A stretch of 18,281 bases of DNA from Candidatus Hermodarchaeota archaeon (GCA_048885925.1 JBHLLG010000056.1:1-18281), one strand, 5' to 3'. Shown: positions 1 through 18,281, counted from the first letter of the stretch. Notes: a model not told the origin generated them from the letters alone. Program-made: numbers and translations.

Positions 1-123
1 ATTATACTTTTCATTTTTAATCTCGTAGGATTGAAAGGGTACAAGGCTTATGATAAATTCCTGCTAATAATAAGCTTCGTGTTTAATTTTCTGGTTGTTT
101 GGTACGCTTGGAACTGGGTTTAA
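1..123 (+). CDS. 3' end of a DUF6326-like membrane protein (partial, cut by window edge)
   Basis: Frame 1 reads IILFIFNLVGLKGYKAYDKFLLIISFVFNFLVVWYAWNWV*. This aligns with the C-terminus of 7370..7735 (IIFAIFNL...KYDKFLFIVGIIFNIMVIWYAWNWM). Not in the ORF track. Confidence 0.85.
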   Translation: MILFIFNLVGLKGYKAYDKFLLIISFVFNFLVVWYAWNWV

Positions 124-955: not shown

Positions 956-974
956 TGTTAGTTTTTGTCCATTC

Positions 975-1208
975 ACAAATTTCAACTAATTGGAAAATAT
1001 TTTGGTAAGTTTTGTTCAAATATGTAAACAATTAAGAGGAAATATGCTGATTCTATTGATATTTTTGAATAGTATAAAAATTTAATGTTAGGTAGTTTCA
1101 CTTATTAATTTCAATATATATCCTTTTAGAACTATAAACACTTATTCGAATTTTTTCTCCTTATCAACAAACATGCTCTTATTAGAACCCCATTCTGTAC
1201 TATAAAAA
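975..1208 (+). promoter_or_regulatory. Conserved control element, copy A (three putative Lrp operators + TATA-like box)
   Basis: Sites ttcaactaattggaa 981-995, aacaattaagaggaa 1027-1041 and ctccttatcaacaaa 1157-1171 (degenerate), followed by catgctcttattagaacccc. Colinear with copies at 6045-6275 and 16010-16235. Confidence 0.75.
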
Positions 1209-1271
1209 AAAAATTAAACTTTTAAATTAAATTAAAATGAAATATCATCTAAAAAAAAAGGTTATCAAAAA

Positions 1272-4012: not shown

Positions 4013-4975
4013 CTATGATTTGGGTAATATTGCTATTTTTTTCATTTTTTTAAAAATCTTAGCTATACTTAATATATGATGATGATTTGTACCACAACAT
4101 CCTCCGAGGATTTTAATATTTGAGTTTAAGTAGAGATCTATCATTTTTTTTCCCCAAATGCTAGGACTTTCAGAACTTGTTTCTTCAAGTGATTCTAATT
4201 CTTCAGGACTCATAGCAGAACCATTCGCCTGTAGTCCCTTAAGTCGAGTTCTTATTAGTTCCGTATTATTAGGTTCATTATTAATTGCACTCCAACAATG
4301 AGTAGGATGAACGCAATTCAGCATATAATAGATAGGTTTTGGTGAAACAGAATTATCAATTACCGAAATTGTCTCATTAAGAGATGTTCCATCTAACAAG
4401 GTTCCATTTGGGCGTATAACAAAACTTATAACATAATCAATATTTGATTCTGCCATTGCTTTAGCCATACCTAGTGCCTCTGAAGCTGCAGGTATAGTGG
4501 ATCCCATTAAAAAGTCCACACCTGCTTCTTTTAACTCTTTTACTTGAAATTTATGAAATTTATATGCCTCATCACTCAAAAGAGCTTCTTCTGGATTATA
4601 GGCATCCCCTTTACAAGCCATTGGCCCTCCTATTAATATTTTATTAGCAAACTCCCCATAACTATCACGAATATCAAATAAAAATTTAACACAATCAGCA
4701 TTAACGTTCTTTTGTTTAAATCCAGCTAACTCTAGACGTTCCTGACTTGCTCGCCAAGTAGGAGCTAACATTAGAATTGGTAAATTAAATTTATGGGCTA
4801 CGGAAATATACTGATTATAGATTTTATCAAGTATTTTTTTTCCTTGAGTATTATAAATCATACCCGCATTCTCGATGTATTGGTTCAACTCAAATTTGAA
4901 TTCTCTTTTTACTCTTTCGATAACAGCTCCTTCAGCAAGAATTAAAGGATTTTCTGAAATTAGTTTTCTTAACAT
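4013..4975 (-). CDS. Homocysteine S-methyltransferase family protein
   Basis: N-terminal ILAEGA, AGVDFL, Zn ligands NCVHP and GGCCGT. Confidence 0.9.
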   Translation of the reverse strand: MLRKLISENPLILAEGAVIERVKREFKFELNQYIENAGMIYNTQGKKILDKIYNQYISVAHKFNLPILMLAPTWRASQERLELAGFKQKNVNADCVKFLFDIRDSYGEFANKILIGGPMACKGDAYNPEEALLSDEAYKFHKFQVKELKEAGVDFLMGSTIPAASEALGMAKAMAESNIDYVISFVIRPNGTLLDGTSLNETISVIDNSVSPKPIYYMLNCVHPTHCWSAINNEPNNTELIRTRLKGLQANGSAMSPEELESLEETSSESPSIWGKKMIDLYLNSNIKILGGCCGTNHHHILSIAKIFKKMKKIAILPKS

Positions 4976-5136
4976 AATTCCTTGCCTTCCTTACTTTAAG
5001 TTATAAAATTTAATTATTATTTTTGTTAACAACATCAGAATAATTAAGAATTTACAGATAAGAACTAATAAATTTTTTGCTGGACAATAAATAACTAATA
5101 TTATTATCCTAGTTAATTAATATTCTAGTAACTACT

Positions 5137-6021
5137 ATGGATGAAATTGACCTAATCATACTTCGAAAACTACTATATAATTGTCGATTGACATATCGAG
5201 AATTAGGTGATATAACTGATATGTCAGTGAGCGCTATACATAAACGTATAAAAAAACTTGAAGATGATGGGATTATCACAGCCTATATTGCTCGACCAAG
5301 CTCAATAGCATTAAAGTATCTAAACGTTGTAATTTTTGGAAAATCTAATGCAAAATCAATGGATGTAATTAGTAAAGAGATTGGACAACATGAGTGTATT
5401 GATGGTGTTGGAATTTTAGGGGGAAAAAGACTCTATATAGGTGTTTTATTAAGAGATATATCAGAACTTCAAGAAATAAGTAGTTATGTTTCAAAAACGG
5501 GTCAAATTAATGAACCAACAGTAGGGATTCTTAACTATCCTTATTTGATCCAACCAGAACCTCTAACGAATACTGATTATAAAATACTAAAGACTCTAAA
5601 TAGAGATGCAAGGAAGCCTATAGTTGATATTGCTGATGATTTAGGATTATCTGCCAGAACTGTAAGAAGACGATTAGATCGAATGATTGAGAATAATTTA
5701 GCTTCATTTACGCTGGAATGGTTACCCTTGTACGAAAATACTTTTATCACGGTTTTTCATCTATATTTAAACGAAGGAACCGATATAAATTCCAAAATTC
5801 AACATTTAAGTGAGATATATTCTCAGAACATGATTTACTGTGTGAACTTTAGCAATATTCCTAACTTGATTCTATTGAGTATATGGAATGCAACTGCTCA
5901 AGACTCTCAGAGAATACTTGAAGAACTGCAAACCGAAGGTTTCAAGGATGTAATCCCCCATATTTTCTACTCGATGAAATGGTATGATTGTTGGATCGAT
6001 CAATTACTTAGAACTAAATAA
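5137..6021 (+). CDS. Double-domain Lrp/AsnC family transcription regulator (clade 1)
   Basis: Two AsnC-type wHTHs (MDEIDL..R.TYREL...SVSAIHKRIKKLE and DYKILK.LNRDARKP..DIADDLGLSARTVRRR), each followed by a RAM-sized domain. Confidence 0.92.
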   Translation: MDEIDLIILRKLLYNCRLTYRELGDITDMSVSAIHKRIKKLEDDGIITAYIARPSSIALKYLNVVIFGKSNAKSMDVISKEIGQHECIDGVGILGGKRLYIGVLLRDISELQEISSYVSKTGQINEPTVGILNYPYLIQPEPLTNTDYKILKTLNRDARKPIVDIADDLGLSARTVRRRLDRMIENNLASFTLEWLPLYENTFITVFHLYLNEGTDINSKIQHLSEIYSQNMIYCVNFSNIPNLILLSIWNATAQDSQRILEELQTEGFKDVIPHIFYSMKWYDCWIDQLLRTK

Positions 6022-6044
6022 TATTACAGAACTAATTTTAATGT

Positions 6045-6275
6045 CTAAATCTCAACTAAATGGAAAAAAAATGTGATCTTTTTTGTTCCATGTTTATTAA
6101 TTTGAGTGGAAAAATATAGATTTCATTGATTTTCTAGATTAATTTAGCTTTTCTGAATTATATAAAATCACCTAAAATTCTCCATTCTTTATATTTAGCA
6201 CTTACAAAGGTGTATTGTTGAATTTTTTCCAAATAAGTGAACATGCTCTTAATAGAGCACCAATCTATAATAAAA
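6045..6275 (+). promoter_or_regulatory. Conserved control element, copy B
   Basis: Sites ctcaactaaatggaa 6051-6065, ttaatttgagtggaa 6097-6111 and ttccaaataagtgaa 6227-6241, followed by tgctct-taat-agagca 6244-6259. Confidence 0.8.
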
Positions 6276-6313
6276 TTAAAAATAAAATTGTAAAAATAAA
6301 AGAGGTAAATATA

Positions 6314-7366
6314 ATGAAGGAAGAAAAAAAGTTGAATAATTTTAAGGAGAGTGGTATGAAAGCAATTATATATTCAAAATACGGACCGCCAGATGTTCTG
6401 AAGGCTAAAGAAGTAGAAAAACCTACTCCCAAGGACAATGAAATATTGATAAAAATACATGCCGCAACAGTAAGTGCTGGGGATGTGAGAATGCGAAGTG
6501 GCAAATTCCCTATTATTGGGGGAATTGGCTGGTTAGGTGCGCGATTATATTTTGGCCTCAGAAAGCCAAAAAGAACATTATTGGGGACTGAATTAGCTGG
6601 AGAAATCGAAGCAGTGGGTAAAGATGTAAAACGATTTAAAATAGGTGACAAAGTTTTTGGCACATCTACAATGTGGCATTCTGGAGCTTATGCGGAGTAT
6701 ATATGTATACCTGAAGAAAGGAAAAAAGAAGGAATGGTTGCATTAAAACCTTCTAATATGACTTATGAAGAAGCCGCCGCTGTTCCTGTTGGTGCTAATA
6801 TGGCCTTGCATTTTCTAAGAAAAGCAAATATCCAGCCCGGGCAAAAAGTTCTTATCTATGGTGCTTCTGGAAGTGTGGGTACTTATGCTGTTCAGCTTGC
6901 TAAGTACTTTGGAGCAGAAGTAACTGGCGTGTGTAGCACCACAAATTTGGAATTAGTAAAATCTCTAGGTGCTGATAAAGTAATTGATTATACCAAAGAG
7001 GATTTTAGTAAGAGCGGTGAAAAAGGGAATTACGATGTTATCTTTGACACTGTAAGCAAAGCTTCATTTTCAGACTGTAAAAGAACGCTAAAGAAAAAAG
7101 GTATCTTTATTGAGGCTAACCCTAGGGTGCTAAATCTTATTCGCGGATCAGTGAAGTCTATCAAAGTAATAGTGGGTAATGCAATTGAAAAGAATGAGAA
7201 TTTAACTTACCTTAAAGAGCTCATTGAAGAAAAGAAGTTAAAAGCAGTCATAGATAGAATTTATCCAATGGAACAAATCACTGAAGCCCACAGGTATGTT
7301 GATAAAGGGCACAAAAAAGGGAATGTAGTAATAATTGTGAATCATAATGTGCGAGGAAGTGATTGA
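6314..7366 (+). CDS. NAD(P)-dependent MDR-superfamily oxidoreductase (quinone-reductase/'alcohol dehydrogenase'-like)
   Basis: Motifs [34 protein letters not shown] and GHKKGNVV; catalytic Zn cysteine absent (TVSAGD). Start is ATG 6314 (GAGGT RBS) or ATG 6356 (AAGGAG RBS), not TTG 6215. Confidence 0.92.
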
Positions 7367-7369
7367 ATT

Positions 7370-7735
7370 ATGGAAGATGTGAAAATAATTCTTTCAGGTT
7401 TATGGGTAGCTATAATGCTAACTTATTTTTTGGGGGATGTAATGCGAATATTTAGTGGTGATTTTGAAGAAGAATCAAAAAAATATAGAAAAATGAGTCA
7501 AAAATTGATGTTTGTAATGACCGTGTTGATGCTGCTTCCAATTATTATGGTCATCCTATCTCTGACAATAACTTATCCCCTGAATCCCTGGGTAAACGTT
7601 ATTGTTGCTATAATCTTTGCTATCTTTAATCTCATGAATATACCTTCGGCCATTTCCAAATATGATAAATTTTTGTTTATTGTAGGAATTATATTTAATA
7701 TAATGGTAATCTGGTATGCATGGAATTGGATGTAG
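7370..7735 (+). CDS. DUF6326-like membrane protein
   Basis: MEDVKIILSGLWVAIML.Y..GD, MVILSLT, WVNVIVA and C-terminal WYAWNW; 4 TM segments. Starts 3 nt after the MDR stop. Confidence 0.8.
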   Translation: MEDVKIILSGLWVAIMLTYFLGDVMRIFSGDFEEESKKYRKMSQKLMFVMTVLMLLPIIMVILSLTITYPLNPWVNVIVAIIFAIFNLMNIPSAISKYDKFLFIVGIIFNIMVIWYAWNWM

Positions 7736-7826
7736 ACATATATGATTATGGATATAATAGATAAAGATTTTTTTAATCAAATTTTTTATTTTTAATTAAA
7801 AGAAATTTATCAACTTGGTGATTAGA

Positions 7827-8315
7827 GTGAAGCTATGGATTATACATAAGGATGAAATTGGATTCTCTAACATTATTGCAGAAATACTCCAAAATCGCTT
7901 GGAAGATTATATAGATGTTTTTGTAGGAAATGCTAAAAGGATCGATCCTTCCTATGTTGTTGAAGAAAAATTAGACTTTTTGATAATTGGAGATATTATC
8001 AGCAAGGAAATTCCTAATTTGGAAATTAAGGATTGGTTCCTTAAATTTTGGGAACTGTCAAACAAAAAAAAGGTCGTTCTTAAAGCAATCTCAGGATATT
8101 ATATTGCATTAGCCGAAATCATAGTTGAACCCTTTTGGGTTAAATTTCTTCATGATAATGTAAAGGTTAATATTATCTATCCACCAATACTTCGTTTAAT
8201 ACTAAATAGCGGAGATATATCATTAGAGAATAAAGCATATGATAAAGTTAAAGACTATTCAAACGATTTAATTGAATATTTTGTAGAGAATAAAAGAAAG
8301 AAAAAAAATTATTGA
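7827..8315 (+). CDS. Divergent flavodoxin-fold protein
   Basis: Paralogue of 9374..9835 (LWII....G.S..I.EI....LE.Y..V.VGNA....PS.V..EK.DF.I.G). A GGTGA RBS favours GTG 7827. Confidence 0.7.
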   Translation: MKLWIIHKDEIGFSNIIAEILQNRLEDYIDVFVGNAKRIDPSYVVEEKLDFLIIGDIISKEIPNLEIKDWFLKFWELSNKKKVVLKAISGYYIALAEIIVEPFWVKFLHDNVKVNIIYPPILRLILNSGDISLENKAYDKVKDYSNDLIEYFVENKRKKKNY

Positions 8316-8344
8316 AGCTCATCCTTTATTTCTAGGTAGAAATC
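8312..8344 (-). repeat. Direct repeat R1 (gene 3'-end remnant, DFYLEIKDELQ*)
   Basis: ttgaagctcatcctttatttctaggtagaaatc matches 14561-14593 at 28/33 and is preceded by an A-tract like the other copies. Confidence 0.75.
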
Positions 8345-8459
8345 AGAATGTGTGATATTATAATATTTTAAGAAAAAAGCATATTCTTGAAAAATAAAAT
8401 TTTTATTTAATTCATCTAATAATAGAATATCAAATTAACCAGCTTTATGTGTAAAATTC

Positions 8460-9245
8460 GTGCCAAAACAACTTCCATCTCATAAAATTAAAAAATTTCC
8501 ACCAGAACGCTTACCAATAGTAGATCTATTAAAGGATGCCAAAAAGCATAGTACAATTTACGCTATTGCTGAAGTTGATGTAACAAAAGCACGCAATATA
8601 ATCCGTGATCATAAGAAAAATACTGGAGAGAAATTATCATTTACAGCTTTTATCGCTTATTGCATGGCTAAAGCTATCGACGAAGATAAAATTCTCCATG
8701 CACGACGCAAAGGGAAAAATAAGCTTGTTATTTTTGATGATGTCGATATAATGACAATGGTGGAGAGGGAGTTTGGAACAAAAAAAGCCCCTATAGGTCA
8801 TATTATAAGAGGGGCTAATAAGAAATCATACAGAGAAATTCATGAAGAAATCAGAAAAGCTCAAGTTGATACATTAGGAGCTGATTATCAATCAAATCAG
8901 CAATTGAAATACAAAAGGTTACCTTGGTTTATGAAAAAAGCTTTATGGCGTAAACATTCTAAAAATCCATATTTTAAAAAGAAATTTACGGGAACTTGCT
9001 CTCTAACGGCAGTAGGTATGTTTGGAAAAGGGAATGCTTGGGGATTAACTCCATCGGGAGACACGGTAATGATGGTTCTAGGTGGAATTGATAAAAAACC
9101 AGCGGTTATAAATGACAAAATAGAAATCCGAGAGTTTTTGAGTGTAACTTTAGGATTTGATCATGATATAATTGATGGTGCTCCTGCTGCAAGATTTGGC
9201 ATACGGTTGAAAAATCTTATAGAGAATGCTGATGACCTTAAATAG
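8460..9245 (+). CDS. Stand-alone 2-oxoacid dehydrogenase E2-type (CAT-like) acyltransferase catalytic domain
   Basis: Motifs EVDVT, KLSFT, GTCSLTAVG and catalytic FDHDIIDGAPAARF. No lipoyl or E3-binding domain. Confidence 0.9.
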   Translation: MPKQLPSHKIKKFPPERLPIVDLLKDAKKHSTIYAIAEVDVTKARNIIRDHKKNTGEKLSFTAFIAYCMAKAIDEDKILHARRKGKNKLVIFDDVDIMTMVEREFGTKKAPIGHIIRGANKKSYREIHEEIRKAQVDTLGADYQSNQQLKYKRLPWFMKKALWRKHSKNPYFKKKFTGTCSLTAVGMFGKGNAWGLTPSGDTVMMVLGGIDKKPAVINDKIEIREFLSVTLGFDHDIIDGAPAARFGIRLKNLIENADDLK

Positions 9246-9312
9246 ATCTTCTTCTCATAATAAAATGCTTAAAAATATTAATTAAAAAGAAAAAAAGAAA
9301 TAAAAATTATTT

Positions 9313-9365
9313 TTGAAGCTTATGCTTCATTTCCATGTAGAAGTCCAGCGATTCTGGGTTTTTGA
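9313..9365 (-). repeat. Direct repeat R2 (gene 3'-end remnant KNPESLDFYMEMKHKLQK* + terminator)
   Basis: 48/53 identical to 14561-14613. Contains tgaagc-N4-gcttca and has a T-rich tract downstream on the minus strand. Confidence 0.9.
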
Positions 9366-9373
9366 ATACATAA

Positions 9374-9835
9374 TTAATTGAAGAAGAATATAATTAAGTG
9401 TTTAACGTATTTTGTAATCAAGGTATAAGTCTCTTTATCTAAAGATCCATTAAAAGTATTAATTTTCAAGACTAATGGTTTAGAAAAGATAGATTCAGCA
9501 GGGAAATATTTAGACATTGTTTTTACCCCAGTATCATTAATATCTAGATTACCTGGTACAATATAATAAGTAGCAACTTTTTTAATGGAAATATTATTAA
9601 ATTTTAAAAGTATATAAAATTCTTCAATCCACTTAGTAATAGGATTCAGAGAATTTTTTCGAATAAATTCACCAAAAATTATAAAATCAGGTTTTTCATC
9701 TATTACTAAGGAAGGTTTGACAATTTCAGCATTTCCTACGGATACATTAAAATATTCTTCTAATTGAGACTCAAATATCTCACTAATCATTTTTGAATAA
9801 CCAAAAGTATTGCTATAAATAATCCATAGATTCAT
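9374..9835 (-). CDS. Divergent flavodoxin-fold protein
   Basis: IIYSNTFGYSKMISE resembles the flavodoxin phosphate-binding loop, followed by DFIIFG and KKVATY. GAGGT RBS; starts 27 nt downstream of the wHTH gene. Confidence 0.72.
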   Translation of the reverse strand: MNLWIIYSNTFGYSKMISEIFESQLEEYFNVSVGNAEIVKPSLVIDEKPDFIIFGEFIRKNSLNPITKWIEEFYILLKFNNISIKKVATYYIVPGNLDINDTGVKTMSKYFPAESIFSKPLVLKINTFNGSLDKETYTLITKYVKHLIIFFFN

Positions 9836-9862
9836 TAGTTATTACCTCATAACCTTTTAATT

Positions 9863-10750
9863 TTAATTTAAGAGATAATTAGATAATTCACTAATCTTAT
9901 CATTTCCTGCAGTCTGCCCATAGTTTTCTAAGATTGGGATATTAACTGTGAATTTTTGTTTTCTTAATCCCTCGATTTTTATAGCTATTAAATTTGCTTT
10001 TTGCAGTTTTTTAAGGTGATATTGAATGGCGTTGGGAAACAATTGAAGATTTCTGCTTATTTGTTTAATGGAAATTTGTGAATTCTTTAAAATTTCTATA
10101 AGAATTTTACACACTAATGGGTTTAAGAATAAAGTACTAAGCCGTTCAAAAATCTCAGGGAATTCTATTGAAAAGAAATGTAATCTCTTCCCAAACTTGG
10201 TTGAGCGGATTAACCCAAAGTTTTCCAAGGTTATAATGTATTTTAGAAAGGTCGTTCGTGTTATATTTAATTCTGTTTCTATTTTGTTATCACTAGCATG
10301 AATTCCAGGATTCTTTCTTATAAAATTAAGAATAGCTCTGTATTTCTCATTATTAAGTATTTCTTCTTTAGTCCTACGTTGATTAGAAATAATCCAGTTT
10401 TTATTTTCTAAATTTTGAATCGCAAAGAAGATTTCCTCTTTTGAATAATCATGGCTATAACTTAATTTTGCAATACATTTTGAATATAATTTTTCTAAGA
10501 TTGGATATCTTTGAATTTGAGATTTTGAATTCACCTTAAATTTAGCAGAATATCGCTTTAATTTTAATATCTCTTCAGCAATTTTTAATACTTCAAATTC
10601 AATTTGAGATAAATTTTCAGTTGAATCTTCTTTATCTGTTAGATTGCGGTTAACAGAATTATTCTTCGCAATTACTCTTGAAGATTTCTTAATTAGAGGA
10701 TTAAATAGATTCCTATCTGCATAAAATACTAAAGTTTCTTCTTCAATCAT
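9863..10750 (-). CDS. Multi winged-helix (ArsR/MarR-like) transcription regulator
   Basis: ILNFIRKNPGIH...YIITLENFGLIRS and ISIKQISRNL...AIQYHLKKLQKANLI. GGAGG RBS. Confidence 0.8.
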   Translation of the reverse strand: MIEEETLVFYADRNLFNPLIKKSSRVIAKNNSVNRNLTDKEDSTENLSQIEFEVLKIAEEILKLKRYSAKFKVNSKSQIQRYPILEKLYSKCIAKLSYSHDYSKEEIFFAIQNLENKNWIISNQRRTKEEILNNEKYRAILNFIRKNPGIHASDNKIETELNITRTTFLKYIITLENFGLIRSTKFGKRLHFFSIEFPEIFERLSTLFLNPLVCKILIEILKNSQISIKQISRNLQLFPNAIQYHLKKLQKANLIAIKIEGLRKQKFTVNIPILENYGQTAGNDKISELSNYLLN

Positions 10751-11012
10751 TATTTAAAATCCCTCCAGTGATAGTTGGCTTTTTATTTTAAATGAAATTA
10801 AATTTAGAGTATTTTACTAACTCCTAAAGTTCTGTTTTAATATTAAAATTCTAATTCTTCCTAAGAATATAATATTGGAGGTAGGTTTTAAGAATATGTT
10901 TAGAAGATAACAGAATAAAGAGAAAAAATTTTAGGAATTTTTCCGATTTATTTCCTAGATGTGATAAAAGTTAGAATTGTAACAACCGATATTTTTCCAT
11001 CTCATTAAAAAT

Positions 11013-11885
11013 TTAGAGATGATCTAGCCAACATTTGAAATAATAACATTTGTGAATAATTCGGGGAATCATGTCAATAAGTCCAATATCTTTTAAAATA
11101 TTTTCAAAATATTGTATCTGGTTAAGAGTTTTTACTAAAATATGAACTGAAAGGAATAGAGGATTATTATTATAGGTTCGTACATATAATAAGTGTTGAG
11201 ATATAGTTTGGATTATTTTACTAATAACATCTTTCATGTCTGTGCTATTAGGAATATATGAATGGAAGATGGCAACAATATCATTCTCTTGACTAGGTTC
11301 AAATTCAATTGTGAAGGATACTAAATTGTTGGTTATCATATCATTAATATGTTTACTAACCGTTTTACTTGATAACCCCGTCTCATCTGCTACTTCTGAG
11401 ACCGATTTTCGTGAATCCCTATTTAAAGATTTAATAATTTGATAATCTATTTTTGAAAGGGTCCCAGTTACCTTTTGGTAGGGATAGTTATAAATTACAA
11501 TAAAAGGATCTTCAATTTTACATATCTCTGTTAGATTTTGTGTTACATTATGCATTTCTGAAATACTCCTGAGTACAGCGGTAATATATACATAATTCCC
11601 CGTAGAAATCCCAAAAAGAATCGTATAAGGATTCTCTCCAAAAATCTCGATTACTCTGTCATAGGATTTCAGCTTTGAAATACCCCCAATATTAATGACA
11701 ATTGCATTTAAAGCACTAAAACTTGGTCGAGCGATAAATGTCTTAATATCTCCCTTCTCTACTAAGTACTGAACTCGTTTATGAACTGCTCCAACAGATA
11801 ATCCAATCTCTTCTGCCAAATCGCGATAAGCAATTCGAGAATTAATTAGTAATTTTTTAATTATTTGTAAATCAATCTCATCCAT
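11013..11885 (-). CDS. Double-domain Lrp/AsnC regulator (clade 2)
   Basis: MDEIDLQII start at ATG 11885 matches the paralogues; two wHTHs; same length (873 bp) as 12070..12942. Confidence 0.92.
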   Translation of the reverse strand: MDEIDLQIIKKLLINSRIAYRDLAEEIGLSVGAVHKRVQYLVEKGDIKTFIARPSFSALNAIVINIGGISKLKSYDRVIEIFGENPYTILFGISTGNYVYITAVLRSISEMHNVTQNLTEICKIEDPFIVIYNYPYQKVTGTLSKIDYQIIKSLNRDSRKSVSEVADETGLSSKTVSKHINDMITNNLVSFTIEFEPSQENDIVAIFHSYIPNSTDMKDVISKIIQTISQHLLYVRTYNNNPLFLSVHILVKTLNQIQYFENILKDIGLIDMIPRIIHKCYYFKCWLDHL

Positions 11886-12069
11886 TGTGGTTCGCAATAA
11901 TTAAACACGTTAAAAATAAAAAAATTTCGTAAATTATATACAATTTTATAAAAAAACTTAAAGAAAATTCGGGAATTTTTTAGTAAAGCAAGTAAATTTA
12001 ATGATCGATATAATTCATAGAAAAGTACTAAATTAATACTGATTGATAGATCTAACTATAATTTAAAAT

Positions 12070-12942
12070 TTAGAATTCATCTAACCAACTTTTAAAATAA
12101 TATCCATTATAAACAATTCTTGGAACTATATCTTTTAGTCCAATATCTTTTAAAATTTCCTCAAAGTGTGTAATATTATTAAGGGTATTGACTGAAACAT
12201 GAATTGTTAGCATTAGTGGGAAATTGCTATATGTTCTAATATAAAGTAAATTCTTAGGGATATGTAGGTGTATTTTATTAATTATGTCTTTCATATTATT
12301 GTTATTTAAAATGTTAGCATGAAAAACAGTAATAATATCATTTTCATAGATCGGTTGAAACTCTATAGTAAATGTTATTAAGTTATTCGTTATCATATTA
12401 TTGATATGCTTACTTACTGTTTTACTCGACAATCCTGTCTCATCAGCCACCTCCGAAACGGTTTTTCGTGAATTCCTGTTTAGAGATTTAATAATTTGAT
12501 AATCTATTTTTGAAAGGGTCCCAATTACCTTTTGGTATTGATAATTATTTATTAAAATTAAGGGATCGTTTATTTTACATATATTTGAGAGATTATGGGC
12601 AATATTAGCCATATCTGAAATATTTTTCAATACTGTTATAAGATACAAATAATTTCCACTCGATATAGCTAAAAAATTTGCATAAGGATCTTCTTCTAAT
12701 TTATCAAGAATTCCCTCAAATGACTGTAATTTAGAAGTTCCAAATATGTATACAGGGATAGCATTAAAAAAGCTATAACTTGGATGAGCTATAAAATTTA
12801 TAATAACATTATTATCTACTAAATTTTGAACTCGTTTATGAACAGCACCTACAGATAATCCAATTTTTTCTGCTAATTCTCGGTAGGGAATACGTGAATT
12901 AATAAGGAATATCCTTATTATCTGTAGATCGATCTCATCCAT
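12070..12942 (-). CDS. Double-domain Lrp/AsnC regulator (clade 2), tandem duplicate
   Basis: Colinear with 11013..11885 (offset 1057 bp); the HTH segments are nearly identical. Confidence 0.92.
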   Translation of the reverse strand: MDEIDLQIIRIFLINSRIPYRELAEKIGLSVGAVHKRVQNLVDNNVIINFIAHPSYSFFNAIPVYIFGTSKLQSFEGILDKLEEDPYANFLAISSGNYLYLITVLKNISDMANIAHNLSNICKINDPLILINNYQYQKVIGTLSKIDYQIIKSLNRNSRKTVSEVADETGLSSKTVSKHINNMITNNLITFTIEFQPIYENDIITVFHANILNNNNMKDIINKIHLHIPKNLLYIRTYSNFPLMLTIHVSVNTLNNITHFEEILKDIGLKDIVPRIVYNGYYFKSWLDEF

Positions 12943-13159
12943 AGAATCCCAAAGTCCTTAAAATATTTCAAAAGGTAAAAATATTTCTAAAATTGAAGTT
13001 TAAAAAATTTTAAAAAGATAAGGTGAATTTTGGAATTTTCATTAGAGGTGAATACATAAAATAATGAAAATAGAGGAAAAAAAATTTTTTTTAACAGTAT
13101 TTTCTCGTTTATTTTGAAATAGTCAATGGTTTGATAGAGTTATTATTATTAAAGATATT

Positions 13160-13738
13160 TTATGATGACAGTAATATTTCTAAAAAACTTTCTGCGAATG
13201 CTCTGATTTTGTTCCAATCCCGAAAATCATTATTTTGTCCTTTTTTGATGTTAGGAAGGGTATTACTCATTAGTTTTCCTATTTTTATATCAAATTTACT
13301 CATCCTGGATTCTTCACTGAGATCTAAAACCCCTCCAAACACATCATAACATTGCGTTTTGAGTGAGTGTTTTTTCAGTTTATCTTCAATGAGGCTTTTT
13401 TTTAATTCAGGGATTTTGGTAGGATCACTAGCGGTTCCACAAAGCGTAAATATTGCGAGGGGTTGGTTTCCTTGTTTTAATCTTTTTGAAAAGCCTTTCA
13501 AAAATTGTTTGGCCCCTTTCGTCCAATTGCTGCAATTGTAAATAGCAGTCCCTAAAATAATACCATCATAAGAATCTAAATTAAATTTTTTATCATTAAT
13601 TATATCTTCTAGATTGTACACATTGGCATCAATCCCCGATTCTTTTAAAAGTTCTCCGATTTTTACGGCTACTTCTTCTGTACTTCCGTAACACGTACCA
13701 TACAAGATAACAACTTTTTTAGTTATTTTGCTACTCAT
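13160..13738 (-). CDS. Flavodoxin-domain protein (HemG/Flavodoxin_5-like)
   Basis: YGTCYGSTEEVA FMN loop, YDGIILGTAIY, VFGG and DFRDWNKIRAFA. Confidence 0.9.
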   Translation of the reverse strand: MSSKITKKVVILYGTCYGSTEEVAVKIGELLKESGIDANVYNLEDIINDKKFNLDSYDGIILGTAIYNCSNWTKGAKQFLKGFSKRLKQGNQPLAIFTLCGTASDPTKIPELKKSLIEDKLKKHSLKTQCYDVFGGVLDLSEESRMSKFDIKIGKLMSNTLPNIKKGQNNDFRDWNKIRAFAESFLEILLSS

Positions 13739-13778
13739 TTTTTAATCACATCATTTCTATTTCTTTTAATTAAATGCC

Positions 13779-13846
13779 TTGATTTATAAATAGAAAAAAG
13801 AAGTATTAAGAAATTTGGAAACAGTTTGTTGTTATGATAGTTAGTA
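13779..13846 (-). promoter_or_regulatory. Duplicated 68-bp promoter/operator, copy 1
   Basis: 61/68 identical to 14397-14464. Contains an ACA-N6-TGT dyad and CTTAATA (13804-13810, minus strand). Confidence 0.8.
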
Positions 13847-13913
13847 GCTAATGTGATTTAAAAAGCAAAAAAATTCTTGAATCCATTAAATATTAAGGGA
13901 AAAAAAAGATTTT

Positions 13914-14360
13914 TTATTTTTTCATAAAAAGCTCCTTTCCAGCAATTACCAACGCAAATGCAGTGATAACGGTTAGCATTATGTACGCCATATATGGAAT
14001 GTTGAAATTAAGTACTGGAAAGGTTAGAATAAGCTCCATGATAAGAGGGATGATAGTGCCGATCATTAAAAATATAAAAGCTTGTTTCGAAGATTTCCAG
14101 AAAGTCGAGTATATTGCATATAGAACGAAGACTTCCACAATTATAAAAGCAATTCCCATCATCCGGATGTATAGTGAAATCAAATACGCTAGATGAGGAT
14201 AATTACTGCCTAATTGTGCCCATGTTAGCTCGCTATACGCGAGATCATCTAAAATCAATGTCCCAATCACAAAGTATGTTGAGTAAACGATGATATGTAT
14301 CCCTGCCGCAAAGATCAAAAAGAAAATAGCAATTCTTCTTAAAATAATGGATCGATTCAT
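13914..14360 (-). CDS. Four-TM membrane protein of unknown function
   Basis: 148-aa hydrophobic ORF with an AGGTGG RBS and its own promoter copy. Confidence 0.8.
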   Translation of the reverse strand: MNRSIILRRIAIFFLIFAAGIHIIVYSTYFVIGTLILDDLAYSELTWAQLGSNYPHLAYLISLYIRMMGIAFIIVEVFVLYAIYSTFWKSSKQAFIFLMIGTIIPLIMELILTFPVLNFNIPYMAYIMLTVITAFALVIAGKELFMKK

Positions 14361-14396
14361 AAATTAACCACCTTTTTTAGTTTTGTTTTGAATAGT

Positions 14397-14464
14397 TTGA
14401 TTTATAATTAGAAAAAAGAAATAATAAGAAATTTGGTGACAGTTTATTGTTATGATAATTAGTA
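14397..14464 (-). promoter_or_regulatory. Duplicated 68-bp promoter/operator, copy 2
   Basis: Matches copy 1. Dyad gtgaca-gtttat-tgttat and CTTATTA (14422-14428, minus strand). Confidence 0.8.
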
Positions 14465-14560
14465 CAGGGTACTTTTTAAAAAATAAAATAACAATATGGC
14501 TAATTATTCTAGTTATGTTCTTTAGATTTAGATAAAAAAAATAAAAAAAATGATTTATTA

Positions 14561-14613
14561 TTGAAGCTTATCCTTCATTTCCATATAGAAATCCCGCTAT
14601 TCTGGGTTTTTGA
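14561..14613 (-). repeat. Direct repeat R3 (KNPE*RDFYMEMKDKLQ*)
   Basis: 48/53 identical to R2; in frame with the zinc-ribbon ORF. Confidence 0.9.
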
Positions 14614-14782
14614 TTTCTCTAAATAATTTTATTAATTCTATAAAATTAGGATTAAATTCCCCCTTATGATATATAAGTTCACATTCTTCGCAATATCCAA
14701 AAAGTTTATCCGTTTCTAAGTCATAAATTACGGGAAATATTCTATTACCACATTTTATACAGATTAATTCTTGAATCTTCAA
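14597..14782 (-). CDS. Small zinc-ribbon protein (possibly truncated by a premature TAG)
   Basis: CIKC...CEEC pairs; GAGGA directly upstream of the TTG start. The frame stays open 12 codons past the TAG to a TAA at 14558-14560. Confidence 0.6.
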   Translation of the reverse strand: MKIQELICIKCGNRIFPVIYDLETDKLFGYCEECELIYHKGEFNPNFIELIKLFREIKNPE

Positions 14783-14903: not shown

Positions 14904-15218
14904 TTAAGTATTCCACTTCCAAGCTTGCAAAAGTATCAATACCAGTAATAACCCTTCTATGGCTCCGTATAATATATAGTACACTGGATTGTTTCCTGTG
15001 AAAAAGGTCGTTAATAGTATAATAGATAAAACTATTCCTATGATGATATTTGTCGGACGATTTACTTTAGCTTTTAGAGTAAGAGACAAGAACACCATTA
15101 GACTCGGAATTGCCATTAATATTGCACTTGATAATAAAAATGCGGAGGTTATTTGGATCCCTGCTATCTCTCTTGTTATTAATTCACTTAAATGCCCCGG
15201 CTCATAAAAATCATCATT
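14904..15218 (-). pseudogene. 5'-truncated DUF6326-like gene
   Basis: The frame is open upstream of the track's ATG: FYEPGHLSELITREIAGIQITSAFLLSSAILMAIPSLMVFLSLTLKAKVNR...AWKW. It has no start codon or first TM helix before the in-frame TAA at 15219-15221. Confidence 0.8.
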
Positions 15219-15962: not shown

Positions 15963-16009
15963 TTTTCAATCACCATCTTTTCAGTTATTTTGTTTTTATT
16001 TTTAATTTT

Positions 16010-16235
16010 TAATAGAGATTGGGGCTCTAATAAGAGCAAGTTCACCGATAAGGAAAAAAATTAGCAGTGAGAGCTTATAGTTATTAAAGTTAAGGAATGT
16101 TAATTTTCCATTGAAATTAATAACATAAAATAAAAGATAAATTGGAAAAACCAATAAAATTCATATTTTTCCTCTCAATTGAATAAATTTTGGAATTGAA
16201 AGTACCAAAATTTTTTCCAATTAGTTGAAATTTTA
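16010..16235 (-). promoter_or_regulatory. Conserved control element, copy C
   Basis: Minus-strand sites ttcaactaattggaa (16229-16215), ttcaattgagaggaa (16183-16169) and ttccttatcggtgaa (16055-16041), followed by gctct-tatt-agagc (16037-16024). Confidence 0.8.
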
Positions 16236-16254
16236 GGATTAAGAAATCAATAGC

Positions 16255-17130
16255 CTAATTAGTCCGAACTAATTGATCTACCCAACACACATACCATTGT
16301 GCAGATAATAAGATATGGGGTATAATATTTTTAAAACCCTCTGATTCCAGTTCTTCTTGAATTTTATGAGATTCTTGTGCGTCTTTTGTACACAGATGGA
16401 GCGTAAAAAAGTTAGGAATATTGCTAAATGAGAGATAACGTACTAAATTGTGAGAATATCTATCGGATATCTTCTGAACTGTAGAACCTAAATCCATACC
16501 TTTGTTTATATAAATGTGAAAAATAGTTATAAAACTCCTTTCATAGACAGGACTCCACTCAATTGAAAATGCAATTAAATTGTTTTCAACCATGTGATTT
16601 AATCTCCTAACAACAGTTTTTGCTGATAAACCTAAATCATCTGCAACTTCGGCTATAGGTTTCCGAGCATCCCTATTCAACACTTTAATTATTCTATAGT
16701 CTATAATGGTAAGTGGTTCTGGAGTTGTTAAATAAGGGACGCTTATAATTCCAATGGTAGGATCACTAATATGGCTGATTTCTGATACATAATTACCAAA
16801 CTCTTGTAATTCCGATATATTTCTCAATAAAGCTGTGACATACATAAATTTCGCACCTGCAGAACCAACAAATCTCACACTCTCATGTTGGCCAATTTCT
16901 TTACTGGTTAATTCTAAAGATTTTACATTGGATGTGCCAAAGACCATAACCCATAAACTTTTTAAAGCAATTACACTTGGCCTTGCAGTATATGCAGTAA
17001 TTATTCCATCATCTTCAAGCTTTTTTATACGTTTATGGATCGCACTAATGGACATACTGCAGATATCCGCTAATTCTCTAAAAGTCAAGCGACAGTTTTT
17101 CAATAAATTTCTAATAATAAGAAGATCAAT
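16255..17130 (-). CDS. Double-domain Lrp/AsnC regulator (clade 1) lacking the normal start; possible pseudogene
   Basis: Homology extends to IDLLIIRNLLKNCR (17130), but MDE is replaced by NKK with TAA at 17143-17145. The first usable start, TTG 17103, removes helix 1. Confidence 0.8.
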   Translation of the reverse strand: MDLLIIRNLLKNCRLTFRELADICSMSISAIHKRIKKLEDDGIITAYTARPSVIALKSLWVMVFGTSNVKSLELTSKEIGQHESVRFVGSAGAKFMYVTALLRNISELQEFGNYVSEISHISDPTIGIISVPYLTTPEPLTIIDYRIIKVLNRDARKPIAEVADDLGLSAKTVVRRLNHMVENNLIAFSIEWSPVYERSFITIFHIYINKGMDLGSTVQKISDRYSHNLVRYLSFSNIPNFFTLHLCTKDAQESHKIQEELESEGFKNIIPHILLSAQWYVCWVDQLVRTN

Positions 17131-17525: not shown

Positions 17526-18281
17526 ATGGATGAAATTGACCTTCTAATAATTCGAAAGCTATTAGAAAATTCTCGTATCACATATCGAGAATTAGCAGAA
17601 ATAATTAATCTTTCTGTAAGTGCAGTTCACAAACGTATAAAAGCTCTTGAAGATGACGGGGTTATTACTGCTTATATTGCAAGACCAAGTGTTATAGCAT
17701 TAAAATGTTTATTTGTAGTGGTATATGGTACATCTAAGGCAAAAGTGATGGGGCTTGTTCGAAAAATACTAGGACAACACGAAAATATTAATGAGGTCGC
17801 TATTCTGGGAAGTAAATACTTTTTTATATCTGCTTATTTAAGAGATATATCAGAACTTCAAGAGTTTAGTAGTTATGTCTCAAAAACGGCTCAAATTAGT
17901 GAGCCATTGATAGGAATTTTAAATGTACCCTATATAACTATCCCAGAGACACTAATCAATACTGATTTTAAGATTTTAAAGTATTTAAATCGAGACGCGA
18001 GGAAACCTATAACAGATGTTGCAGATGACACGGGTTTAAGTTCAAAAACAGTTAGAAAACGGATAGATAATATGATCAAGAATAAATTAGTTTCATTTAC
18101 TATAGAGTGGAAACCATTATCTACACAAAGTTTTTTTTCTATTTTTTTTATATATCTAAACGAAGGTACCAATATGAATAATACATTTCGGCAGCTTAGC
18201 AAGAAATATTCTAAAAACATTGCATATATGATAAACTATAGTAATATTCCGAACTTTATCAATATGATTACATGGGCAAAA
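17526..18281 (+). CDS. Double-domain Lrp/AsnC regulator (clade 1), partial, runs off the window
   Basis: MDEIDLLIIRKLLENSRITYRELAE...LNRDARKPITDVADDTGLSSKTVRKR...NYSNIPNF, open to the window end. Absent from the ORF track. Confidence 0.92.
   Translation, partial: MDEIDLLIIRKLLENSRITYRELAEIINLSVSAVHKRIKALEDDGVITAYIARPSVIALKCLFVVVYGTSKAKVMGLVRKILGQHENINEVAILGSKYFFISAYLRDISELQEFSSYVSKTAQISEPLIGILNVPYITIPETLINTDFKILKYLNRDARKPITDVADDTGLSSKTVRKRIDNMIKNKLVSFTIEWKPLSTQSFFSIFFIYLNEGTNMNNTFRQLSKKYSKNIAYMINYSNIPNFINMITWAK

Follow-up and report, generated by a model that had tools for sequence, protein, structure and literature searches.

The window considered here, an 18,281-nt stretch that makes up the whole of a contig labelled Candidatus Hermodarchaeota archaeon (GCA_048885925.1, JBHLLG010000056.1), is AT-rich (~30% GC) and carries three short direct repeats, R1, R2 and R3, which read on the minus strand as the end of a protein-coding gene. 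R1 faces a convergent, flavodoxin-like 166-aa gene, R2 lies behind a string of genes that ends in a second flavodoxin-like gene of 153 aa, and R3 holds the stop codon of a 61-aa zinc-ribbon open reading frame (ORF); two blocks of genes, block 1 and block 2, lie between the repeats. Comparison with related loci makes it almost certain that all three are 3'-end stumps of aacS, the gene for acetoacetate-CoA ligase; the portion kept comprises the last 16-19 of ~662 codons, the stop and an oligo-T tract, and the aacS gene body is missing from R1, R2 and R3 alike. The way in which the stumps came to bracket the blocks is a more tentative matter, for which serial insertion resembling integration at an attachment (att) site is weighed with its rivals.

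A repeat search over the whole window returns one three-member direct-repeat family, at 8285-8364, 9286-9365 and 14534-14613, with spacings of 1001 nt (R1-R2) and 5248 nt (R2-R3); relative to the reference copy at 9286-9365, the copy at 8285-8364 is 65% identical and that at 14534-14613 84%. An earlier note on this DNA had described three same-orientation repeats with position-by-position identities of 48/53 for R2/R3 and 28/33 for R1/R3; the repeats are real, both figures are exact (R1/R2 gives 27/33), and the minus-strand readings that it proposed for the three copies hold. Within the window, blastn-short matches R2 to R3 over 59 nt (89.8%, E 1.2e-15), R1 to R3 over 25 nt (92%, E 6.5e-5) and R1 to R2 over 55 nt (81.8%, E 0.001); the observed Smith-Waterman score of the repeat core is reached by 0/300 shuffles, and the similarity among the copies is far beyond chance. 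The same note deduced a coding origin from synonymous changes, an argument that is weak alone, since 5/11 of the differences between copies fall at third codon positions; the coding origin itself stands through homology to aacS.

The parent gene was recognised in related loci, of which 13, amounting to ~197 kb, were found via the neighbouring 166-like gene (protein anchor, 10-sequence alignment); nearly all are labelled as Promethearchaeota or Asgard metagenome-assembled genomes (MAGs), and they share 66-89% DNA identity with the window; none is of the source species, with best DNA identities of 70-87%. The window itself belongs to a Promethearchaeota (Lokiarchaeal) organism, a name also borne by the proteins that cluster with its own. 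A Promethearchaeota MAG among them, L004, has an intact aacS ORF (4620-6440, minus strand) that scores 738.5 bits on the TIGR01217 acetoacetate-CoA ligase model (cut-off 520.9) and ends in GALRNPTSLDFYMEMKDKLQ, also given as RNPTSLDFYMEMKDKLQ; the orthologue of the 166-aa gene (4062-4553, plus strand) is convergent with it, with 66 nt between, and this place of the intact aacS corresponds to the position of R1 in the window. The earlier note had left the parent gene to BLAST searches, and tblastn and blastn to L004 identify it as aacS: the blastn matches at window positions 9271-9345 (R2; 80% over 75 nt, E 5e-10) and 14532-14593 (R3; 80.6% over 62 nt, E 6e-9) cover the aacS 3' end plus the T-rich stretch behind it, and tblastn of L004 AacS matches its last 16-18 codons at R2 (82% over 17 aa, E 0.004), R3 (72% over 18 aa, E 0.016) and R1 (62.5% over 16 aa), with no other aacS fragment in the window at E up to 10. 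A second intact orthologue, in L009, ends in ALRNPESLDFYEKTREELNKQ and has the same orientation relative to the 166-like gene at a distance of 2.2 kb; intact aacS is thus present in 2/13 related loci, and R1 is the only stump with an intact aacS at the corresponding place (adjacent in L004, one of 12 distinct loci, and at 2.2 kb in L009). The gene is widespread in Promethearchaeota (346 matches), and the C-terminal tail of AacS is strongly conserved among the best 120 of these 346 relatives, the commonest tail being VANRGALRNPESLDFYMEMKDKLQ (12/120; the commonest form of the 120 Loki AacS tails is also given as RNPESLDFYMEMKDKLQ, and the end pattern of aacS is abbreviated NPESLDFYMEMKDKLQ). 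It is because the 3' ends match intact aacS and the tail is conserved that R1, R2 and R3 are assigned to this gene.

The intact gene in L004 is longer than its called ORF, as the aacS frame remains open and homologous through 6440-6600 up to the N-terminus of the family; ORF callers give L004 AacS 606 aa and not ~662 aa because there is no ATG, GTG or TTG at the N-terminus, and several 606-aa database entries suggest that the same start miscall is common. A large ORF adjoins aacS in L004 (6806-9724, minus strand), with a GIY-YIG nuclease match of 21 bits, below the cut-off; another large ORF, adjoining the 166-like gene in locus L010 (10887-12284, plus strand), gives a GIY-YIG match of 34 bits. 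The two proteins were considered as a common mobile gene and rejected, as they do not resemble each other (best E 0.17).

The repeats have sharp boundaries. All six flank pairs (250-300 nt) score within the shuffle range, with 53-269 of 300 shuffles reaching the observed Smith-Waterman score, and no homology extends past the repeats in any of them. R2 and R3 have a common 5' edge, at the Leu/Arg position of ...A-L-R-N-P-E..., where 15 bases are identical; this 15-mer has 2 matches in the window at up to 2 mismatches, compared with 0.14 expected. Both copies also carry Lys where 120/120 natural AacS tails have Arg (the Lys change occurs in 0/120). From the same 5' edge, the identical 15-mer, the common Arg-to-Lys change and the unrelated flanks, sequence comparison shows that R2 and R3 are copies of one already truncated stump and not two independent truncations. 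R1 is older than, or different from, this pair; its secure core is 8312-8344, where secure homology begins at DFY and the preceding five codons match weakly, and its 5' edge is uncertain, lying between 8344 and 8359. The DFYMEM codons form a dyad, ATTTCTA-nn-TAGAAAT, which by eye is perfect (7+7) in R1, 6/7 in R3 and in L004, and 5/7 in R2.

An nhmmer search of the window and the ~197 kb of related loci, with a profile of the stumps R1-R3 plus both intact aacS ends, matches those five places only, the next match having E 0.18, which argues that R is not a dispersed repeat in the DNA sampled. Scattering of R in random orientation, which the earlier note had raised as the finding that would speak for a dispersed element, is not seen: neither the window nor the related loci contain another stump.

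Table 1. Features of the window around the three aacS stumps, in order of position
Feature	Position	Strand	Remarks
166-aa flavodoxin-like gene	7815..8315	+	convergent with R1
Oligo-T tract behind R1	8285..8308	-	T8 C T3 C T4
R1, almost certain aacS 3'-end stump	8309..8359	-	(NITHS)DFYLEIKDELQ, then TAA; tblastn match 8312-8359, 62.5% over 16 aa; nhmmer E 1.4e-14
Block 1, between R1 and R2	8360..9285	+	single gene, 8460-9245
Stand-alone 2-oxoacid dehydrogenase E2 catalytic-domain protein, 261 aa	8460-9245	+	block 1 gene, strand opposite to R
Oligo-T tract behind R2	9286..9306	-	runs T5, T7, T5
R2, almost certain aacS 3'-end stump	9307..9366	-	FKNPESLDFYMEMKHKLQK, then TAA; frame intact; nhmmer E 1.8e-20
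Block 2, between R2 and R3	9367..14533	-	six genes, all co-oriented with R
153-aa flavodoxin-like gene	9374-9835	-	block 2
295-aa winged helix-turn-helix gene	9863-10750	-	block 2
Double helix-turn-helix AsnC-type regulator	11013-11897	-	block 2
Double helix-turn-helix AsnC-type regulator	12070-12942	-	block 2
Flavodoxin_5 gene	13160-13738	-	block 2
148-aa membrane protein gene	13914-14360	-	block 2
Second TAA and oligo-T tract behind R3	14534..14557	-	T8 A T8
R3, almost certain aacS 3'-end stump	14558..14614	-	IKNPE, stop, RDFYMEMKDKLQ, then TAA TAA; nhmmer E 2e-18
61-aa CxxC-x21-CxxC zinc-ribbon orphan ORF	14597..14782	-	in frame into R3, ends at TAG inside R3

Archaeal oligo-T terminators are recognised by a run of five or more T that closely follows the stop codon on the coding strand. 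Such runs lie behind R1 (T8), R2 (T5, T7, T5) and R3 (T8, T8) as putative terminators; in every copy a run of T5-T8 lies within 30 nt past the stop on the minus strand, bearing out the adjoining oligo-T that the earlier note had reported, and T-runs likewise follow both intact aacS genes in L004 and L009. Intrinsic terminators of the bacterial type, in which a T-run follows a GC-rich hairpin, number 2 in the window (2.0 expected), with none at R. Downstream of the 153-aa gene the first T-run met is that of R2, and downstream of the 61-aa ORF it is that of R3. The R2 tract is presumed to be the archaeal terminator of the gene string that runs from 10750 to 9374, and the present-day stumps are taken to be non-coding, with R2 and R3 probably serving as 3' untranslated region and terminator for the unrelated genes upstream of them, that is, the 153-aa gene string and the 61-aa ORF.

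The last codons of R1 overlap the TGA (8313-8315) of the convergent 166-aa gene, and the Lys-rich C-terminus of the 166-aa protein (8285-8315; …ENKRKKKNY, then the stop) is encoded by the reverse complement of the R1 oligo-T tract. A resemblance of the open frame upstream of R1 to the C-terminal half of the 61-aa ORF was considered and is not supported, with 53/300 shuffles reaching its score. R2 starts 8 nt past the stop of the 153-aa gene, in a different frame; a reading of R2 as the frameshifted C-terminus of that gene was rejected, as the family ends where the 153-aa protein ends and an R2-like tail occurs in 0/16 retrieved and 0/22 aligned members. The 166-aa and 153-aa genes are paralogues (33% identity) with no Pfam match for either, and their family is small, with 42 representatives among 1.84e9 proteins (E up to 1e-3). 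Both paralogues adjoin an aacS stump, and family members in L004 and L009 lie near intact aacS.

At R3 the in-frame TAG at 14597-14599 replaces the TCG of R2, and the same TAG is the stop of the 61-aa ORF; TAG as a sense codon was considered and rejected, as TAG ends 5 of the 20 other genes listed. With X at the TAG and the frame read through, the 61-aa ORF finds itself alone among proteins of 40-130 aa; the ESM Atlas gives unnamed small proteins only and the structure model is poor (predicted local distance difference test score, pLDDT, 0.52). No aacS similarity of the 61-aa ORF was found, and before the TAG change this ORF would have had a 13-residue aacS-derived tail together with the aacS stop and terminator. 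The earlier note was right in describing R1 and R2 as body-less, and the same is true of R3, where the 61-aa ORF is unrelated and no aacS body is present. Between R1 and 14782, 7/8 genes are co-oriented with R; block 2 has a GC content of 27.2%, compared with 31.8% in the flanks.

The account that is tentatively favoured, at somewhat less than an even chance when taken as a whole, combines the aacS stumps with att-like serial insertion of the blocks. At the start a resident aacS would have been convergent with the 166-aa gene, and the blocks would have been inserted serially at its 3' end by recombination duplicating a target of ~55-60 nt; this would resemble the formation of attL and attR, in which an element enters a gene 3' end and brings a replacement end. 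Its recombinase would have been supplied in trans or has since been lost. The outcome would be the order R1 (the original chromosomal end), block 1, R2, block 2, R3, with R2 and R3 having arrived with blocks 1 and 2; the aacS body would have been lost later, or may be located past a further insert, and the DFYMEM dyad is a possible core site. The direct orientation, the sharp edges, the unrelated DNA between the copies and the common 5' edge of R2 and R3 speak for such an origin, as does the position of R1 next to the gene that neighbours intact aacS in L004; a repeated gene-end piece of ~55-60 nt with sharp edges is the pattern expected from site-specific integration into a gene 3' end.

A number of observations weigh against this origin. 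The earlier note had found no recombinase in the window, and this holds: a recombinase, integrase, resolvase or transposase catalytic domain occurs in 0/49 window ORFs of at least 50 aa, where sub-threshold matches to the helix-turn-helix (HTH) alone (e.g. HTH_Tnp_ISL3) are confined to AsnC-type regulators, and the intergenic gaps of the window, at 423 nt or less, leave no room for a decayed recombinase gene between genes. The block genes show no mobile-element hallmark in PHROGs, in which 9 proteins gave generic HTH matches only, nor any match in phage and plasmid collections; the block-1 E2 protein belongs to a large Loki-type family (2977 matches, the named ones being Promethearchaeota or Lokiarchaeota), and the GC content at third codon positions (GC3) of block 2 (0.175-0.383) overlaps that of outside genes (0.199-0.386), so that a foreign composition is not clear. 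At the R3 end, where the att model expects an intact aacS, the unrelated 61-aa ORF is found instead. Gene order beside the 166-like gene differs in nearly every related locus; of 12 distinct loci, one has aacS directly adjacent to it and another has aacS at a distance of up to 2.3 kb, and in the latter arrangement L009 has a 2.2-kb stretch with extra genes between the neighbour gene and aacS and no flanking stump. R1 is most diverged exactly where R2 and R3 are identical, and a single common edge for the three copies is thus not established. Finally, a sharply bounded 77-nt repeat, D5 (86%), stands ahead of two unrelated genes in the same window, which argues that short regulatory modules are copied here by a route that may do without an integrase. 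The missing target gene, recombinase and mobile cargo, the stump-free L009 stretch, the variable gene order and D5 are the reasons for placing the mechanism no higher than tentative.

The leading alternative, considered unlikely and nonetheless serious, is a non-site-specific replacement of the aacS body by native genes through illegitimate or short-homology recombination, in which the oligo-T stump was retained as a terminator; R2 and R3 would then be a recent copy, or would be kept alike by short-tract gene conversion, and no dedicated recombinase would be involved. This fits the absence of recombinase and mobile-element genes (49 ORFs; PHROGs), the ordinary Loki-type paralogues that make up the blocks, the variation in order near the 166-like gene in almost all of the 13 loci, and the place of R2 and R3 as holders of the first T-runs past the 153-aa gene and the 61-aa ORF; the window also has other duplicated short intergenic modules, namely D5 and a ~280-nt module. 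However, it offers no mechanism by which ~60 nt alone, sharply delimited and set in unrelated flanks, would be copied over a distance of 5.2 kb, and the identical 5' edge of R2 and R3 needs a copy event that it leaves unexplained; moreover, a T-tract suffices for termination, yet 17-19 codons have been kept at 90% identity. The earlier note had set att-like scars beside overwritten genes with a retained terminator; its description of a gene 3' end plus terminator with missing bodies stands, and of the two readings the att-like one is only slightly preferred.

A more speculative and rather doubtful proposal is that Lokiarchaeia capture genes by a cassette-like system that has the aacS stump as its recombination site, with the recombinase encoded elsewhere. 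Blocks of native-type genes, each ending in a ~60-nt stump that also supplies the terminator, would be added one after another at a single locus, as in an archaeal analogue of the integron or of the cluster of attC sites lacking integron-integrases (CALIN); the site would have been born from a coding-gene end and not from an attC hairpin.

It is improbable that the stump was exapted as a cis element, either a protein-binding dyad or an RNA 3'-end element, with selection keeping R2 and R3 alike. The 90% identity of R2 and R3 over 59 nt contrasts with 33-64% amino acid identity in neighbouring paralogue pairs, many HTH regulators are encoded nearby and the dyad is, by eye, perfect in R1; however, the dyad is already 6/7 in the intact L004 coding sequence and is therefore inherited and not newly evolved. 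The RNA folds of the R copies are no better than those of shuffles (z -1.13, -1.01 and -0.75), Rfam gives no match in the window at the gathering threshold nor around the R copies at E up to 1, R3 has suffered a nonsense change and R1 heavy divergence, and the 197 kb of relatives hold no more copies.

Independent decay in place of three aacS paralogues is very unlikely. The wide occurrence of aacS in Promethearchaeota and its presence in 2/13 loci would supply the starting genes, but the R1-R2 spacing of 1.0 kb is less than the 2 kb of an aacS, and the copies are thus not three decayed full genes side by side; the truncation point, 15-mer and Arg-to-Lys change (absent from 120/120 tails) common to R2 and R3, and the lack of any remaining aacS fragment in the window at E up to 10, further oppose it. 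Still less credence is given to a dispersed terminator repeat of the genome or one like a miniature inverted-repeat transposable element (MITE), for which many copies in either orientation, terminal inverted repeats and target-site duplications would be expected: R is short, AT-rich, intergenic and followed by T-runs, but its sequence corresponds to the 3' coding end of an actual gene, the repeat search returned no terminal inverted repeats around the copies, and the nhmmer search over the window and the ~197 kb of related loci finds the three copies, all in one orientation, and the two intact genes, with no extra copy.

The attC site of integrons has the core consensus R'' RYYYAAC and R' GTTRRRY, plus a bottom-strand hairpin. 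That the window holds a CALIN, an integrase-less cassette array of the integron type in which R would be attC, is scarcely credible; repeats at the 3' ends of co-oriented genes recall such arrays, and the available part of one survey describes integrons as enriched in Asgard MAGs, with most archaeal cases being CALINs (PMC9668308), but no R''/R' cores occur in or near R1-R3 on either strand, there is no hairpin above shuffles and no Rfam match, block 2 has six genes and R is a gene end, not an imperfect palindrome. An assembly artefact, that is, a chimeric join at the repeats of a metagenome contig, is equally hard to credit: the window is a single MAG contig, but the copies share no identical stretch longer than 15 nt, below assembler k-mers, and a 7761-nt contig of a second assembly, known through its proteins, encodes both the last 192 aa of the block-1 protein (100%) and the DUF4386 protein that lies to the right of R3 (97%), in keeping with an unchanged order through R2, block 2 and R3.

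Beyond the stumps, paralogue modules form a patchwork in this region, and in every related locus they are ordered differently. Five paralogous double AsnC-type HTH regulators, 35-64% identical, lie within 18 kb (5137-6021, 11013-11897, 12070-12942, 16255-17103 and 17526-18281); the window also has two DUF4386 genes and three DUF6326 genes or fragments, of which the copy at 14904-15116 (minus strand) lacks ~20 residues that are present at the N-terminus of its paralogue at 7370-7735 and the copy at 1-120 (plus strand) is cut by the contig start. The two copies of D5, a direct repeat, lie at 13770-13846 and 14388-14464, ~30 nt upstream of the flavodoxin and 148-aa membrane protein starts; containing a TATA-like box, D5 looks like a duplicated promoter module.

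The ~280-nt intergenic module is found in the window at 968-1245 (plus strand) and 15970-16243 (reverse complement), with partial copies at 6038-6133 and 6220-6294, and again in L003 (two copies), L005, L006, L008 (three copies), L009, L011 (three copies) and L012. It is placed just behind genes for double-HTH AsnC-type regulators and ahead of varying target genes, and eight copies align at 77% mean identity. The module features two near-invariant boxes, one beginning AAATTTCAACTAAATGGAAAATATTTTGG and the other GAACATGCTCTTATTAGAGCCCCAATC, the latter just ahead of the TATA-like TATTATAA; RNAalifold gives a hairpin over alignment columns 14-76 in which 4 pairs are changed on both sides, with no net covariation bonus. 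The module could be an operator/promoter or a small RNA, and may be of wider interest than the aacS stumps. Among the related loci, L001, a 5.9-kb contig labelled 'Candidatus Stahlbacteria bacterium', has the same window matches as the Loki_b31 contig (L002, 7452-10676) at near-equal identities; a Lokiarchaeal contig misplaced in a bacterial MAG is the probable explanation.

How the large, paralogue-rich genomes of Asgard archaea are built is a subject of study, and to our knowledge few of their integration sites are known. Those described in the available parts of two reports are tRNA genes or short AT-rich motifs (PMC8813620, PMC11529989). If att-like insertion is the true origin of the stumps, Lokiarchaeia would have a new attachment site in a protein-coding gene, the aacS 3' end, and the locus would record how ordinary regulatory and redox genes accreted step by step with no integrase resident there. 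Should the att-like reading be wrong, the locus still provides a clean case of last codons and a terminator outliving their gene and being reused by unrelated genes. Such reuse matters to annotation, as the 61-aa ORF terminates inside an aacS relic, and it cautions that a gene-end repeat need not be an att site.

Genomic islands can lie between a tRNA gene and a repeat of that gene's 3' end, and tandem accretion of such islands gives serial copies in the same orientation. The R locus likewise has gene-end direct repeats around variable blocks; it differs in that the target is protein-coding, the intact target is missing and no tRNA gene is present in the window. A closer parallel in kind is the integration of e14 or phage 21 at icd of Escherichia coli, where e14, according to the portion of the source available, leaves a 163-bp pseudo-icd' (PMC6379469): on the same partial account, both systems show a direct repeat of the gene end, incoming DNA that supplies a slightly different 3' end, and a body-less gene-end fragment at the far side of the insert. 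However, e14 has an intact icd, an integrase and demonstrated excision, whereas the R locus has none of these and is read from its sequence alone; it also lacks mobile cargo, has a shorter stump (~55-60 nt) and holds three copies.

Within the same domain of life, the accessible part of one study documents, for archaea, att sites that lie within protein-coding genes, elements integrated in tandem and integrase genes lost after integration (PMC8371274), and the R locus resembles what is described there in its coding-gene site, tandem array and integrase-less remnants. These archaeal elements were identified through their integrases or through viral or plasmid genes, in contrast to the R locus, which has none; a limited search of the literature on Asgard mobile elements and on integration at acetoacetyl-CoA synthetase genes found no aacS target. 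Asgard integron arrays and CALINs, in the part of the survey available (PMC9668308), are alike in being recombinase-less arrays of co-oriented genes with a similar short site behind each gene, whereas R has no attC cores or hairpin, is a relic of a coding gene and has one block of six genes. Ordinary pseudogene fragments share with the stumps the truncation, the in-frame stop of R3 and the strong divergence of R1; what sets the R locus apart from them is the presence of three copies, two with an identical edge and 90% identity, standing as the 3' ends of unrelated genes.

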